A DNA stretch of 64,000 nt from Patescibacteria group bacterium (GCA_041666205.1 JBAYHI010000002.1:64725-128724), one strand, 5' to 3'. Positions 18,360 through 40,517 are shown, counted from the first letter of the stretch. The notes: a model not told the origin generated them from the sequence alone. Numbers and translations: made by a program.

Positions 18360-18398
18360 TATTTAAAAAACAAAACGGGCAGACACATGGGTCTGCCC
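18360..18398 (-). terminator. intrinsic terminator of the 841-aa gene
   Basis: GGGCAGACCCATGTGTCTGCCC hairpin followed by TTTTGTTTTTT on the minus strand. Confidence 0.55.
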
Positions 18399-18406
18399 CT
18401 ACCAAT

Positions 18407-20932
18407 TTATCGACTCGGTGGAATTTCGGATGCAGGAATGGGTGCCGCATTTGGCACACCCGCGCCAATACCCGATCGCAGAGCAATTTCTTTTTCCACA
18501 ATTTCTTTTGACTTGCCGTATTTGAGGCGCGACATTTCCTTGAGCGCTTCCGCAAGTTTTGGATTTGGCTGATCAGGCGTGCCAACTTTGAGCGTGAATG
18601 GTTTCAACTGTGCCATGTCCACGACGATTTTTGCATTCCAGGTGTAATTATCCGTATTCATCAAATCATACGCACCAAAGGTTGGCTCAAATACTTTCGT
18701 AAATACCTCTGCATCTTCCGGACCAATACGCGCCACAAACATATTCCCGACGTTTCCTAGCACGGCATCGCGAATTTGCGTATCGTTATTTTTCACGAGC
18801 TGGCCCATGTACTGGTGCGCAAGCGTGAGGTTCAAGCGATACTTTCGAGCCTCAGACAAAATCGTGGCAATTGAGGGCGTAATAAAGTTTTGGAACTCAT
18901 CGATATAGAGGAAGAAATCACGACGCTGATCTTCTGGGAGTTCCGCACGCGAAAACGCGGCCATCTGCAATTTTGCAACCATGATGAGCCCGAGCAAGTT
19001 TGCGTTCACCTCACCTGTTTTTCCTTTTGACAAGTTCACAAGCAAAATCTTTCCTTCGTCCATGATCTGTCGGAAATCAAACGCAGATTTTGATTGCCCA
19101 ATGATATTTCGAATCATTTCGTTTTCCACAAATCGCCCAACTTTCGAAACCAAGTACCCCATCATTTCCGACTTGTGATAATCCGACGTCTTGGCCATTT
19201 CATCTTTCCAAAAACTCTGCACAACCGGATCAGTCACTTTAGCAACCCATTTTGCCTGGAAGGCGTCGTCTGCAATCATCCGCGGGATTTCGGCAATGGT
19301 TCCCAAATCATTCTGATCCGCCATGAGCGTGAGCATATAATTGCGCATGCTGTGCTCAAACATTGGGCCGATCATTTCTGGCGGGAATAACATGTAGAAA
19401 ATCGAGATCATTTCCTGCACAGCAAAATCTTTCATGCTCTCATTGGGTGCCTCGAGCATATTAAGACCCATCGGGCGATCGGTGTCGGACGGACAAAAAT
19501 AAATCACGTCGTCAATACGCTCTTTTGGAATCGTGCCCAAAATATCGTCCACCAAATCGCCGTGTGGATCGATTACGCAAACGCCTTTGCCCGCACGGAT
19601 ATCCTGCACGGCCATATAGCGCAAAAACCACGATTTCCCCGAACCGGTTTTTCCAATGAGATATGCATGGCGCTGACGATCTTTTTCCTTGATAAAAATT
19701 TCCGTGCGCTTCCCACGATAATCATTGTGACCCAAATGCAGCCCTTCGGTTGGCATGCCGGCTGGCGCCGGAGCCACACGTGCAAGCATCCAACGAATCG
19801 TTGGCGTTTCGGTTGTTGGGAGTGGTAAATGCCACAAGCTTGCCATTTCTTCGGTATTCAAAATACAGCGATGCTTCTCACTGAAATGACGGAAGATAAA
19901 ACTGCGAATGAGTTTTGCTTTTTGCGATGGAATCGCTTTTGCAAATGCATTCCCGAATTCATAAATATTGTATTGCGCAAACGCCTGCAAAATTTGGTTG
20001 AGGTTTGCTTGCGCCATATCAGCACTTTGCGAGGAAGAAATAAGACGGATATTCACTTCCATTCCCGCCTTACTGATTTTGTTTTCAATGCGTTTCACCA
20101 TTTCCTGCTCCCCTTGCGACATTTGGCGCACTTGCGGTTGTTGCTGTAATTCCTCAGGTTTTTTCGGGGCTTTTCCCCAAGCGAGCGATAGCCATCCTCC
20201 GCCTTCTTTTGAACCGCCTTTTGCTTCTTTATAGCTCATGCCCTTGTGCATGTTCGTTGCAATCTTTTGACCAGTCGATCGCCACCCCGATCCAGCAGGA
20301 CGCACAATATATTGCACAGCCATGCCATCGCCTTCGGAGACTTTAGAGAGCGCATTTGTCAGACCATTCAATGGATCAGATTCTGATTCCTTATACGTCT
20401 TGATTGGGAGCACGGCTTCTTTTTTGAGAGTAACATAGCCTCCCAAAATCGTGCCGGTTGGATGAAAAATATTATAATCTGGCACGGGTTGAGCCATGGC
20501 ATCGGGATATTGGGCATTGAGTTGTTGCTCTACAAATTGCTGCAAATATTCCGGCACCGTGAGGTAAAACGTGATGAGTTTTTGATGCGCCACCATTTCG
20601 AGCGCGATCTGATCGGTTCGCCCAAAGAGCCACGCATGCAATCCTTTTTGCGTTGGCAATCCCCCGATTGCCGCATAAAACGTTTCAGCAATCGAAATAC
20701 GCTCTTGTAATTTTTGCGTTCCCCCATCGCTTTTTGCTTCCTCTTCGGAAATAAACTTTGGCACGGTCACCATAAGGGTGACGTGCTTATTTTTGCCGTT
20801 TTGCATGGGAGGTTGACTGTGCAAAATTGCACGAAGCCCCCATAAAAATGCCACGAGAAGCCCGCCCAATACAACAAACAGAAGTACAAGGCTCAAGAGC
20901 GTATCAATTTCACCTAATCCAAATACGTTCAT
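18407..20932 (-). CDS. TraD/TrwB-type coupling-protein-like ATPase fused to a large N-terminal membrane-anchored domain (841 aa)
   Basis: N-terminal TM helix, roughly 400-aa domain homologous to ORF 38925..40517, then Walker A HAYLIGKTGSGKS, VIDPHGD motif, Walker B LYIDEFQNF, AHQYMGQL. Paralog of 37032..38921. Confidence 0.6.
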   Translation of the reverse strand: MNVFGLGEIDTLLSLVLLFVVLGGLLVAFLWGLRAILHSQPPMQNGKNKHVTLMVTVPKFISEEEAKSDGGTQKLQERISIAETFYAAIGGLPTQKGLHAWLFGRTDQIALEMVAHQKLITFYLTVPEYLQQFVEQQLNAQYPDAMAQPVPDYNIFHPTGTILGGYVTLKKEAVLPIKTYKESESDPLNGLTNALSKVSEGDGMAVQYIVRPAGSGWRSTGQKIATNMHKGMSYKEAKGGSKEGGGWLSLAWGKAPKKPEELQQQPQVRQMSQGEQEMVKRIENKISKAGMEVNIRLISSSQSADMAQANLNQILQAFAQYNIYEFGNAFAKAIPSQKAKLIRSFIFRHFSEKHRCILNTEEMASLWHLPLPTTETPTIRWMLARVAPAPAGMPTEGLHLGHNDYRGKRTEIFIKEKDRQRHAYLIGKTGSGKSWFLRYMAVQDIRAGKGVCVIDPHGDLVDDILGTIPKERIDDVIYFCPSDTDRPMGLNMLEAPNESMKDFAVQEMISIFYMLFPPEMIGPMFEHSMRNYMLTLMADQNDLGTIAEIPRMIADDAFQAKWVAKVTDPVVQSFWKDEMAKTSDYHKSEMMGYLVSKVGRFVENEMIRNIIGQSKSAFDFRQIMDEGKILLVNLSKGKTGEVNANLLGLIMVAKLQMAAFSRAELPEDQRRDFFLYIDEFQNFITPSIATILSEARKYRLNLTLAHQYMGQLVKNNDTQIRDAVLGNVGNMFVARIGPEDAEVFTKVFEPTFGAYDLMNTDNYTWNAKIVVDMAQLKPFTLKVGTPDQPNPKLAEALKEMSRLKYGKSKEIVEKEIALRSGIGAGVPNAAPIPASEIPPSR

Positions 20933-21441
20933 ACAAGCGCATTATCAACACGATGCGTTTCTTGTTCGAAACGCTCCATAATCGTGTCGGTTTTAATTTT
21001 CGCTTCCTGCTCTAAGAAAAATTTATTGACCCCAGGAATTAACTGAAGCCATTCAATAATGAGTTTCAATACTTTTTGCACCTGCATCTTGCCTTGAATC
21101 ATCATGACGTGGATGGTTTGTGCAACTTCCTCACCTTTTGCGCGAAATGCCGCCTTGCGATCGTCGGGGAGCGACAAATACATATCCGTGAGGTCAGACG
21201 ATAGAATTTCTTCAATATCTTTTACGAGCAAATCCTTGGGTGGAAGTGTTGCAACCGGAAGTTGTGGAGCAACCTGCGGAACTTCGGCAGGTTTTTCTTG
21301 CACAGGTTCTTGCGGTTCTGATTGCACTTCTGGTGCTTCTGCACTGGGTCCCGTCTCGGTACTGAGTTCTGGAACCTCAAATAGCTCCTCTCCACCTTCG
21401 GGAAGCGGGGTGAGATCTTTTTTCTCCGTCATGTCGGTCAT
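20929..21441 (-). CDS. hypothetical acidic Pro/Glu-rich protein, translationally coupled to the 841-aa ATPase
   Basis: 170 aa; N-terminal low-complexity PEV/PQ repeats, C-terminal helical domain; stop overlaps the downstream start (ATGA). Confidence 0.4.
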   Translation of the reverse strand: MTDMTEKKDLTPLPEGGEELFEVPELSTETGPSAEAPEVQSEPQEPVQEKPAEVPQVAPQLPVATLPPKDLLVKDIEEILSSDLTDMYLSLPDDRKAAFRAKGEEVAQTIHVMMIQGKMQVQKVLKLIIEWLQLIPGVNKFFLEQEAKIKTDTIMERFEQETHRVDNALV

Positions 21442-37031: not shown

Positions 37032-38921
37032 TTACGAGTTGAATTGCACAATTTCCCCTGGCTTTGGAGATCCTGCTGCGTGATCACTCCCCGGCGTTTG
37101 AGACGTGGGCGCGCTACTTGTTGGCGTCTTCTTTTTATGACGACGTCGACGCTTACTGCGCTCGGGCGCTTGCGGAGGCACAGTTCCCATTGGCGCTTTT
37201 ATCGGCACCGAAATAGGTACTGCAGGTGCAACCTCCCGCGCCATCTGCGCAGGCTTTTCCATCGCCGGTCGCGCAACAGGAGCGGGTTTTGCACGCTCCG
37301 TTAATTCCGAAAGTGAGGCGCTGCTTGATTCTTCTTTTGTAATAAGTTCCCCATCCATGATTTTTGGAACTTCTGTGATCACCTTCTTTTCTGGTCGAAA
37401 CGGAGCCGGAGATTTCTTTCCTTTTTCACGCTCCTCTTTAATAAGCGGCATGCACTCTTCACAATAAATCGGGCGCGAACGATCGAGCTCTACTGGAATC
37501 GCAAAGGTTTTTCCGCAACGCGTGCAGGTATATTCCTGGCTATATTTTGCTTTCTTCGCCGCTTCTTTTTTATCTTTCACCTCTTTATATTTTTCGTCCA
37601 AATCCACGCCCTCACCAAATCCACTCCAGGTCGCCACATGTTCTTCAATGGACGCGCGATTTCCCGCGTAGCGTTCACGAGATTGCGCCACGACCCGTTC
37701 TTGACTTCCTGTTTTTTGCGCAATCGGTGGAAGGGTGAGCGCGGAAAATGGCGCAGAGGTGACGCCGTCAATCATGAGCTTCAAATAAATTTGGAATTTC
37801 GGCAAATTGATTAAATCCTCCGGCAAAAACCGCGGGGTAAATTCATCCTCCATAAATGTGGCGTCTGGCGAACCAACGCGGAATGTAATGATCGTACCCA
37901 CGTTTCCAAATACGGCATCGCGCACCGACGTATTCCCGCCGTAATCGAGTTGAGAAATATACTGGTGCGCCATGATGAGGTTCAGGCGATATTTACGTGC
38001 TTCAGAAAGAATTGACGCAAAGGATTCAACCGCAAAGTTTTGAAATTCATCAACGTAGAGATAAAAATCTTGACGCTCACTTTCAGGCATATCCACACGC
38101 TCCATGGCAGCCATGGAAAGCTTGGTAACAATCATCCCTCCGAGCAAACGCATGGCATCTTCTCCAATACGTCCTTTTGCCAAATTCACAATAAGAATTT
38201 TCTGATCATCCATGATGCTGCGCAAATCGAGCGTGGATTTTGCTTGCGCCACAATATTTCGCATGACCGAGGAAGAAAGGAATTGTCCAACTTTATTTTG
38301 AATAGGCGCCACGGCCTCGGACGCAAACTTGCTTTCGTATGATGCAAATTCCGTCACCCAGAATTGTTTGACGATCGGATCTTTCACGTTTGCAATAATT
38401 TCTTTTCGATACGCGGCGTCCGATAGCATGCGGTTAATCCCCAAGAGTGTGGTATTGGGCGTATCCATGAGCGCCAAAATCGTATTATTGAGAATATATT
38501 CCATGCGTGCGCTCCACACATTTTCCCAGATTTTCTTGAATACACTCATCATGCCCGCAGCCACCAAATGCTTCTGATCGGGTCGAACTGCTTCCAAAAT
38601 ATTGAATCCAATTGGATACTCAAAATCCGCCGGGTTAAAATACACCACGTCGTTTATGCGCCACGACGGAATATAGTCGAGGAGTTTCTCTGCGGTATCG
38701 CCGTGCGGGTCAATATAGCAGGCGCCGTGGCCAGCATAGATGTCAGAGAGAATCATGTTCTCAAGGAGTGTAGTTTTCCCCATGCCGGTTTTTCCAATCA
38801 CATAGACGTGCCGGCGACGATCATCGGTTTTAATGCCAAATTTATGCATCTGATTGCGAAAATTCGTTTTCGCAAAATAGATGATGTCTTTTTCGTGATC
38901 GTGGGGATAGCGCATTGGCAT
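37032..38921 (-). CDS. TraD/TrwB-type coupling-protein-like ATPase (629 aa) with C-terminal zinc ribbon and low-complexity tail
   Basis: Walker A HVYVIGKTGMGKT, CYIDPHGD, Walker B LYVDEFQNF, AHQYISQL. CxxC...CxxC near the C-terminus. Paralog of the ATPase half of 18407..20932. Confidence 0.6.
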   Translation of the reverse strand: MPMRYPHDHEKDIIYFAKTNFRNQMHKFGIKTDDRRRHVYVIGKTGMGKTTLLENMILSDIYAGHGACYIDPHGDTAEKLLDYIPSWRINDVVYFNPADFEYPIGFNILEAVRPDQKHLVAAGMMSVFKKIWENVWSARMEYILNNTILALMDTPNTTLLGINRMLSDAAYRKEIIANVKDPIVKQFWVTEFASYESKFASEAVAPIQNKVGQFLSSSVMRNIVAQAKSTLDLRSIMDDQKILIVNLAKGRIGEDAMRLLGGMIVTKLSMAAMERVDMPESERQDFYLYVDEFQNFAVESFASILSEARKYRLNLIMAHQYISQLDYGGNTSVRDAVFGNVGTIITFRVGSPDATFMEDEFTPRFLPEDLINLPKFQIYLKLMIDGVTSAPFSALTLPPIAQKTGSQERVVAQSRERYAGNRASIEEHVATWSGFGEGVDLDEKYKEVKDKKEAAKKAKYSQEYTCTRCGKTFAIPVELDRSRPIYCEECMPLIKEEREKGKKSPAPFRPEKKVITEVPKIMDGELITKEESSSASLSELTERAKPAPVARPAMEKPAQMAREVAPAVPISVPIKAPMGTVPPQAPERSKRRRRHKKKTPTSSAPTSQTPGSDHAAGSPKPGEIVQFNS

Positions 38922-38924
38922 AGA

Positions 38925-40517
38925 CTAAATCGGGAGATTTGTAGGCACATCGTTTTTGCCATCGATTGTTTCGGGCGATGCATCAAAGCCCGGTGGAAGT
39001 GGCGCCGGCATTCCGGCACGGGGCCGGTACAAATCGTCTGGCGTTGACGCAACCGGCATGACGCGGTCATAGGAGCGATCATCGCCTTGAAGCGAACGCG
39101 TTGGCGCGGAAAGTTTTGGCACCACGAGTGGCCCTGTATCTTTTGGTAAACTCTTTTTTGTGACGAGCCCATCGGTTGTAGAGCGATCCAAATTCGGCAA
39201 ATCAGGTTCATTGGCCCCGGCCCAATTGAGCTCAGACGGCGCTTCTGAACGGCGCGAAGAAAGTCGCGCAAGCACGGGCGTGCGCGCATCGCCCGCTGGA
39301 AAATGAAATAGCGTTGCGAGCTCGGCCGAGTTCATATAAAACACGCTCGAGGACGCAAACGGATGACGCTTCTTGTAGCGCTTCACCAAATTGCGTTGTT
39401 TTCCAGGAAGTTGCCACTCCATCCAGAAATAATCGTCTTTTGGCGTAGAGGCCTCGTGAATTCCAATCGAGTTTAGCGTGAGATCTCCAAATTGGTGGAA
39501 ATAGCCCTTCATCATGGAGGCAATCGTTCCCTTGCGGAATAATTCTTTTTTTGCAAAGTACACGAATCGGATTTTCGTTTGCCAACCGAGTTTCGTAATT
39601 TTCAAACGCACGGCTTCCATTTGATCACGCTCTTCTGGCGTGATTTTGAACATCTTAAAATCATCGGCTTTCTTTTCCGGCGATGCACCCCCAAGCGTCA
39701 ACCCGGTGAGTTGACTCACAAATTCCCCGGGAATCCACCCGATTCCGCTCGAGAAAAACCCAGACTTTGGAGCATCAACATCGCGACCGTATAATTTTTC
39801 AATGAATTTCTTCCCTTCCTTGGCCCAATCCTGCTCATCGGGTTGTTTGATAATGAGCTGAATCATGAGATTTTCCCCAGGGCGCATTTTTCCCATCATT
39901 TCCAAAAGCGGAAGAATCGTATCTTTGTACCGATTATCTTTTTCCCCCATGTGCTCGAATTGCTCATACGTGCGAATCGGCAAAAAATTCTTTTTCTTAA
40001 GAATCATTTCCGTTCCCCAGCAATCCCATTCTTCATTTGGCCATTCATCGGGAATAATGCCGATATAATCTTCCACCTCGGTCATCTGAGCCTCGGGATA
40101 TTGCGCATAGAGCGCCGCTTCCAAGAGGTCGCGATATTTTGATTGCACCCGCATATAATATTGCAGGTTGCCACCAATTGACACAATCTCCAATGAGAAA
40201 AACGCTTGAAATTTTCCGAGCAGCCATTCCTCACGCCACGTAATAGCAGATTTACTTCCTGCAATATTATTGAAAAAATTCTCCATGCCTTTTGGCGTTT
40301 GTACGGCATCGAGTGGAACCGTAACCGCAAGCAAGTGCCATTTCAAATTATCCCAATATTCGCCTTGCTTATAATCTTGCCAGACTTCCACAAGACCCCA
40401 CACAATAACGCCAAAAATTGGCACCCATCCAACCATAAACAATGCATGAGCTGCCATGATTTCGAGTGGCGTTGTCGCAAAATAGTGCGAAACAATTGCG
40501 GACAATTCAGAAATCAT
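38925..40517 (-). CDS. membrane-anchored protein homologous to the N-domain of the 841-aa fusion
   Basis: N-terminal TM helix. Blocks conserved with 18407..20932 (LAVTVPLD/LMVTVPKF, AQYPEA/AQYPDA, FLPIRTYE/VLPIKTYK, ELATLFHFP/EMASLWHLP). Ends 3 nt before the ATPase gene. Confidence 0.5.
   Translation of the reverse strand: MISELSAIVSHYFATTPLEIMAAHALFMVGWVPIFGVIVWGLVEVWQDYKQGEYWDNLKWHLLAVTVPLDAVQTPKGMENFFNNIAGSKSAITWREEWLLGKFQAFFSLEIVSIGGNLQYYMRVQSKYRDLLEAALYAQYPEAQMTEVEDYIGIIPDEWPNEEWDCWGTEMILKKKNFLPIRTYEQFEHMGEKDNRYKDTILPLLEMMGKMRPGENLMIQLIIKQPDEQDWAKEGKKFIEKLYGRDVDAPKSGFFSSGIGWIPGEFVSQLTGLTLGGASPEKKADDFKMFKITPEERDQMEAVRLKITKLGWQTKIRFVYFAKKELFRKGTIASMMKGYFHQFGDLTLNSIGIHEASTPKDDYFWMEWQLPGKQRNLVKRYKKRHPFASSSVFYMNSAELATLFHFPAGDARTPVLARLSSRRSEAPSELNWAGANEPDLPNLDRSTTDGLVTKKSLPKDTGPLVVPKLSAPTRSLQGDDRSYDRVMPVASTPDDLYRPRAGMPAPLPPGFDASPETIDGKNDVPTNLPI

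Follow-up and report, generated by a model that had tools for sequence, protein, structure and literature searches.

The window analyzed here, a 64,000-nucleotide stretch of a Patescibacteria group bacterium genome (GCA_041666205.1, JBAYHI010000002.1:64725-128724), carries on its minus strand a gene (locus A, 18407..20932, called as an ORF from its ATG start) whose 841-aa product joins a transmembrane (TM) helix, a DUF8128 domain with a fold resembling that of the VirB4 N-terminal domain, and a type IV coupling protein (T4CP)-type ATPase in a single polypeptide. This layout is based on Pfam and precomputed domain matches and on a full-length AF2 model (pLDDT 88.8). The N-terminal membrane anchor (aa 6-39; 20816..20917, minus strand) is the only hydrophobic segment in a Kyte-Doolittle scan, which detected no further TM-like window, and it forms a long helix over the same residues in both predicted models. 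It is followed by the DUF8128 domain (aa 48-397; 19742..20791, minus strand), with the conserved motif EE[LM]A[ST]LWHLP at its C-terminal end, and by the P-loop motor domain (aa 398-805; 18518..19741, minus strand), in which the segment between Walker A and Walker B holds an insertion modeled exclusively as helices (residues 498-611). Walker A (GKTGSGKS, aa 427-434; 19631..19654, minus strand) has its lysine, K433, preserved in 38 of 39 aligned sequences, and Walker B (LYIDEFQ; 18890..18910, minus strand) has invariant D678 and E679. These values derive from an alignment of 45 sequences, with 33-39 ATPase-containing rows per column, among which Walker A, VIDPHGD, LYIDEFQNF (aa 675-683) and AHQYMGQL are all invariant or nearly so. 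The first-pass annotation had reported these four motifs, which lie where it placed them, and had described a single N-terminal TM helix preceding an N-domain in the same polypeptide. The hydropathy scan confirms this topology, with a domain of about 350 aa. Of the two locations that it had allowed for this domain, periplasmic and cytosolic, the latter holds, since a single TM helix combined with an ATPase fused downstream requires the N-domain to be cytoplasmic.

Directly upstream lies a partner gene encoding 170 aa (20929..21441, minus strand), which starts 15 nt past the cysS stop codon. The junction with the 841-aa gene reads GTATGAACG, and the TGA stop of the partner therefore overlaps the ATG of the ATPase gene, an ATGA arrangement by which the two are predicted to be translationally coupled. 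An intrinsic-terminator-like hairpin of 8 pairs, 6 of them GC, followed by GTTTTGTTTT (18377..18398, minus strand), is located 9 nt past the stop of the 841-aa gene and closes the transcription unit formed by cysS, the partner and the ATPase gene. The partner comprises a variable, acidic and Pro-rich N-terminus (33 D+E versus 17 K+R overall, with 13 of 15 prolines within the first 70 residues) and a strongly conserved C-terminal domain of about 95 residues (W-L-x-x-IPGVNKFFLEQEAKIKTD). The size, acidity and overlap given in the first-pass annotation are correct, but its description as a low-complexity protein is incomplete, because these last residues form a conserved domain. No TM segment is present, making the partner a soluble acidic protein, and its sequence profile had no match in the PDB. 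The partner family, which lacks a Pfam domain, numbers 983 homologues, all of them in Patescibacteria. Of 37 related loci that have the partner, only 2 do not place it immediately before the fused gene, and in one of these the two genes are joined in frame. Small upstream ORFs in other CPR lineages were considered as distant partner homologues and rejected (hhalign probability 0.3%).

A split paralogue of this system, locus B, is encoded on the same strand. Its first gene (38925..40517) specifies a stand-alone DUF8128 protein of 530 aa, identified with the A1 HMM (E 2e-141) and by BLASTP with the locus A N-domain (E 8e-20, 22% identity). This protein has a single TM helix (aa ~20-46), and its tail is disordered and rich in proline; the gene is preceded by a TATAAT-like box. 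The second gene (37032..38921), starting 3 nt past the stop of the first, encodes a soluble T4CP-type ATPase of 629 aa that is 41% identical to the locus A ATPase (E 2e-110). The paralogous locus with a separate N-domain gene that had been proposed from inspection of the DNA is thus real. The C-terminus of the locus B ATPase contains a CxxC-x17-CxxC zinc ribbon of the treble-clef type (37449..37535, minus strand), followed by a basic, Pro-rich tail. The ribbon matches TIGR04272 (E 2.1e-5) and PF23477 (E 3.5e-5), the latter with a score of 23.8 bits that falls below the 27-bit cut-off, and is shared by the locus B orthologues L004-L006.

Genomic context and distribution in Patescibacteria

Both loci are embedded among housekeeping genes (cysS, dnaX, secDF, uppP), and their GC and base composition match the remainder of the window. 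Pfam scans covered 34 ORFs, most of those of at least 150 aa, with about 10 long ORFs outside the scan. Most scanned ORFs could be assigned to housekeeping families, 8 had no Pfam match, and none was a VirB4, VirB6 or relaxase; the earlier claim that these are missing from the window holds for this set. No NurA, Sir2, other mad or dnd/dpt genes adjoin the loci, nor do integrases, relaxases or repeats.

The gene order at locus A is cysS, partner, fused gene, in many relatives a gene of about 200 aa, and dnaX; at locus B it is secD-secF, in many relatives a sigma70_r4/HARE-HTH protein, the DUF8128 gene and the ATPase with its zinc ribbon. Across 80 species-representative loci, DUF8128 directly precedes the ATPase in every case and the two form a single ORF in 73, the partner is found upstream in 37, and the ~200-aa gene and dnaX are each found downstream in roughly 35-40. 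In the window the ~200-aa gene is absent by tblastn, and the gap between the ATPase and dnaX has no Rfam match. Synteny of locus B with secDF is kept in distant lineages, and the two loci lie in tandem at two of the 80 (L079 and L080). A screen of these 80 chromosomal loci with 13 housekeeping and module proteins as queries, a set without T4SS or relaxase profiles, found no relaxase or MPF genes. The DUF8128-ATPase module in Patescibacteria is therefore chromosomal, duplicated and vertically inherited at two syntenic sites. The architecture, whose duplication in a small genome the first-pass annotation had pointed out, is not peculiar to this one genome: the 841-aa protein has more than 5,889 homologues, with orthologues 60-80% identical, and DUF8128 forms 5,080 clusters at 50% identity.

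Identity and predicted fold of the N-domain

The first-pass annotation could assign no function to the N-domain. Precomputed matches for the exact protein and for almost all of its homologues identify it as Pfam DUF8128 (PF26449); our own scans, which used a Pfam copy lacking PF26449, gave no Pfam or NCBIfam match for this domain, for its stand-alone paralogue in locus B or for the partner. A sequence-profile search of DUF8128 against the PDB likewise returned no match. Comparison of the predicted model with known structures matched the fold to the VirB4 N-terminal domain, and to VirB4 only, at 7-10% identity and a TM-score of about 0.4, values that denote structural likeness only. As modeled, then, the N-domain has the fold of its counterpart in VirB4. 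The HAS-barrel expected of HerA was not seen, the fold being VirB4-like. No paper turned up in a full-text search of the literature for 'DUF8128', and NCBI lists DUF8128-ATPases under names of the T4SS DNA-binding or the conjugative-transfer family. What is new here is the VirB4-N-domain-like module, the family itself being known, widespread and uncharacterized.

Placement of the motor domain

The ATPase was assigned to the TraG/VirD4/TrwB type of motor, a placement supported by its sequence profiles and in line with the T4CP-like (TraD/TrwB/VirD4) reading of the first-pass annotation. It scores above the gathering cut-offs of PF02534 (T4SS-DNA_transf; 41.8 versus 20.1 bits), PF10412 (TrwB_AAD_bind; 37.3 versus 20.5) and PF12696 (TraG-D_C; 24.9 versus 22), and its sequence profile matches only DotL and TrwB in the PDB. 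No VirB4 was among these matches, though the library holds TrwK and 4ag5; AAA_10 (VirB4) reaches 12.2 bits, below its cut-off of 27.5, and CagE_TrbE_VirB had no match in the Pfam scan of the 841-aa protein. Superposition of TrwB on the predicted model covers 362 of 420 TrwB residues. Placement in FtsK or HerA was the outcome that the first-pass annotation had set against its reading. FtsK_SpoIIIE (11.5 bits) and HerA_C (14.4 versus 22) fall below their gathering scores, although DUF87, the HerA central domain, lies above (31.9 versus 23.2). Membership in FtsK/SpoIIIE was rejected on the FtsK_SpoIIIE score and membership in HerA on the HerA_C score, the N-domain without a HAS barrel and the lack of an adjacent NurA gene. 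PADLOC matched both ATPases to its mad8 model (E 3.5e-16 and 9.2e-23) and gave weak HerA and DndH matches.

No curated NCBIfam T4CP model (TraD, CD1115 VirD4-like, MobC) is matched at its cut-off, and equivalogs score far below; the best scores are 51 bits for SXT_TraD, against a required 366, and 38 for CD1115, against 250. When canonical proteins were scored with an HMM of the CPR ATPases, T4CPs (TraD 10 bits, PcfC 3) fared no better than VirB4s (Embleya 17, TraC 6), and the family therefore constitutes a separate branch rather than plain VirD4.

Relatives on conjugative plasmids

A tblastn search matched 730 plasmids, with the best-ranked places (16 of them covering at least 80% of the query) spanning both domains; the window protein and these relatives are 22-29% identical. 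Three were analyzed with the CPR ATPase HMM and with a DUF8128 HMM that was built from CPR sequences only: WP_331738717 of Embleya sp. NZ_CP108778 (257 bits; DUF8128 E 8.6e-13), WP_213380696 of B. subtilis NRS6107_2 (138 bits; E 6.5e-23) and the pair WP_226043279 and WP_226043280 of Natrinema sp. DC36 (162 bits; E 2e-24). As in the window, DUF8128 comes first and the ATPase second, in fused or adjacent genes. The B. subtilis and Natrinema proteins differ in having no obvious N-terminal TM helix, as judged by reading their N-termini without a hydropathy scan. The acidic partner, restricted to Patescibacteria, further sets the window system apart from its plasmid relatives.

Housekeeping genes surround the gene in the window, whereas its plasmid relatives adjoin transfer genes. 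A 'replication-relaxation family protein' is annotated beside the gene on both bacterial plasmids (B. subtilis and Embleya), where VirB3- and VirB4-like genes also adjoin it; on the Natrinema plasmid, the two-module protein is found beside VirB6-like and conjugal-transfer genes. Pfam scans of the neighbors detected TcpC (VirB8-like) and an AAA_10 VirB4 in B. subtilis, the latter a true VirB4 at 279.9 bits, and TrbL/VirB6 in Natrinema. For TcpE, for the Embleya PrgI and NlpC/P60 genes, and for an unnamed ATP-binding protein that stands where VirB4 would be in Embleya, the record annotation is the only source. By gene order, the two-module protein of the Bacillus and Embleya plasmids thus occupies the position of a coupling protein, beside a relaxase-like gene. 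The first-pass annotation had anticipated, as a point against its reading, that the N-domain might be an ordinary characterized domain of conjugative plasmids next to transfer genes; it does occur there, but in other organisms, and is uncharacterized there too.

Discussion

The 841-aa protein combines traits of two kinds of T4SS ATPase. Canonical T4CPs (TrwB of R388, VirD4, TraD of F, DotL, Cag-beta) have a short anchor of two TM helices directly before the NBD and no cytoplasmic N-domain of ~350 aa, whereas here one TM helix is followed by DUF8128; sequence relatedness to them is marginal, as the scores of TraD and PcfC with the family HMM attest. Canonical T4CPs are also encoded with relaxase and/or MPF genes, which were not found among the window ORFs scanned but do neighbor the plasmid relatives. 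With VirB4 (TrwK of R388, PDB 7o42/7o43/8rtd; the C-terminal domain of T. pseudethanolicus VirB4, 4ag5) the protein shares, in the predicted model, the fold of the N-domain, but membership fails at the sequence level. Furthermore, VirB4 adjoins or is fused with VirB3, whereas the gene upstream of the 841-aa gene encodes the soluble partner, and a true VirB4 coexists with the DUF8128-ATPase on the B. subtilis plasmid.

Quinonero-Coronel et al. (2025; PMC12102498) surveyed Patescibacteria and reported 5,713 VirD4-type homologues in 2,918 of 3,035 genomes, about 2 per genome, against VirB4 in 2,417. These orphan T4CP homologues are matches to a VirD4 profile that are chromosomal and away from virB4, only 148 of the 5,713 lying near it, and relaxases are rare. 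In S. epibionticum, Tn-seq indicated that a T4CP homologue is dispensable and the T4SS essential. The figure of about two per genome matches loci A plus B, which almost certainly represent the same gene set; the parts of that survey covered here mention neither DUF8128 and its likeness to VirB4 nor the partner genes and the two syntenic positions.

We consider it probable that the 841-aa protein is a member of a distinct and widespread family of T4SS-type, hexameric motor ATPases in which DUF8128 precedes a VirD4/TrwB-like NBD, with an MPF-FATA-like T4SS as the most likely channel. The N-terminal helix would anchor the protein in the membrane, DUF8128 would form on the cytoplasmic face a membrane-proximal tier that docks to other membrane components, as in VirB4, and the C-terminal domains would assemble into an ATP-hydrolyzing ring passing substrate to the channel, most likely the T4SS that these bacteria encode elsewhere. 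DNA or nucleoprotein is the probable substrate, as paralogue B bears a zinc ribbon and a basic tail and relatives have DNA-binding neighbors, and the translationally coupled partner may serve as an adaptor or regulator of the motor. The first-pass annotation had envisaged an uncharacterized secretion or DNA-transfer apparatus. This is not demonstrated, since DUF8128 can be assigned and the family is widespread, already named by NCBI and present on conjugative plasmids; the protein is a known kind of motor with an unrecognized VirB4-like module.

It is possible, though on balance unlikely, that both DUF8128-ATPase modules are instead T4SS-independent, exapted translocases, acting as stand-alone membrane-anchored DNA or nucleoprotein pumps (for instance to take up or process DNA, or to handle the chromosome during division). 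According to PMC12102498, T4CP homologues away from virB4 occur in 96% of genomes, versus 80% for VirB4, one of them is non-essential where the T4SS is essential, and the authors of that study allow for exaptation. Such a role agrees with the synteny with dnaX and secDF rather than transfer genes, with a paralogue B that bears a zinc ribbon and a basic tail, and with the Sigma70_r4/HARE-HTH protein beside locus B in many relatives. However, no identifiable channel partner lies beside either locus, housekeeping synteny may be mere frozen gene order, and S. epibionticum relies on ComEC and T4P for competence, in which these ATPases have no reported part (PMC12857230). Replacement of FtsK by DUF8128-ATPases was rejected: TM7x carries an annotated ftsK (PMC10768705), and such replacement is not needed, at least in TM7x. 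A bolder and rather doubtful extension regards DUF8128-ATPases as a surviving VirB4-VirD4 intermediate, a coupling-type motor that kept the ancestral VirB4 N-domain. In Patescibacteria its two vertically inherited paralogues, each with lineage-specific small adaptors, would have been exapted to near-universal housekeeping translocation independent of a T4SS; such a system might, for example, import or handle nucleic acid or protein from the host where epibiont and host meet.

The remaining alternatives are at odds with sequence profiles or gene context. A divergent VirB4 paralogue, working in assembly or pilus biogenesis rather than in substrate coupling, would account for a protein of about 800 aa that mirrors VirB4 throughout, with an N-domain matching the VirB4 fold only and a C-terminal ATPase. 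It is nonetheless improbable, as T4CP families score above cut-off where AAA_10 and CagE_TrbE_VirB do not, the PDB profile retrieves DotL and TrwB but not the VirB4s in the library, the B. subtilis plasmid carries a canonical AAA_10 VirB4 as well, the plasmid homologues lie beside a relaxase-like gene (B. subtilis and Embleya), and Patescibacteria possess their own monophyletic VirB4 elsewhere, as reported in PMC12102498. The PADLOC matches to mad8 on both ATPases, and the weak ones to HerA and DndH, could point to an anti-phage defense ATPase (MADS mad8-like, HerA-like or DptH/DndH-like), a very improbable reading: such likeness is expected within one ATPase superfamily, and whereas defense islands are patchy, the module occurs almost universally, and in synteny, across the classes of Patescibacteria. 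Membership in these systems (mad8, HerA, DptH) was ruled out by gene context, which offers cysS, dnaX, secDF and uppP in place of mad, dnd/dpt, NurA or Sir2 genes and no 8-gene mad operon. Finally, the closest relatives outside Patescibacteria reside on conjugative plasmids, which might suggest that the genes are left over from an integrated conjugative element in decay, but this origin is scarcely credible for two intact ORFs with invariant catalytic motifs, 60-80% identical orthologues, the same flanking housekeeping genes in several CPR lineages, window-like GC content, and no adjacent integrase, relaxase or repeats.

The interpretation of the 841-aa protein as a T4SS-type motor matters for Patescibacteria, host-dependent organisms that account for much of bacterial diversity. 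Their T4SS, essential in the single species examined, lacks an assigned coupling protein, while nearly every genome holds about two orphan T4CP-like genes. The VirB4-like docking module, the plasmid counterparts in coupling position in monoderm and archaeal conjugation systems and the two conserved operons with small partners provide handles for experiments in the genetically tractable Saccharibacteria, and the results bear on the origin of VirD4-type motors from VirB4. The 841-aa protein also shows a weak, partial likeness to EccE of mycobacterial type VII secretion (ESX-3, ESX-5), with 115-160 residues aligned and no sequence relationship, which may reflect a common alpha/beta sandwich only.

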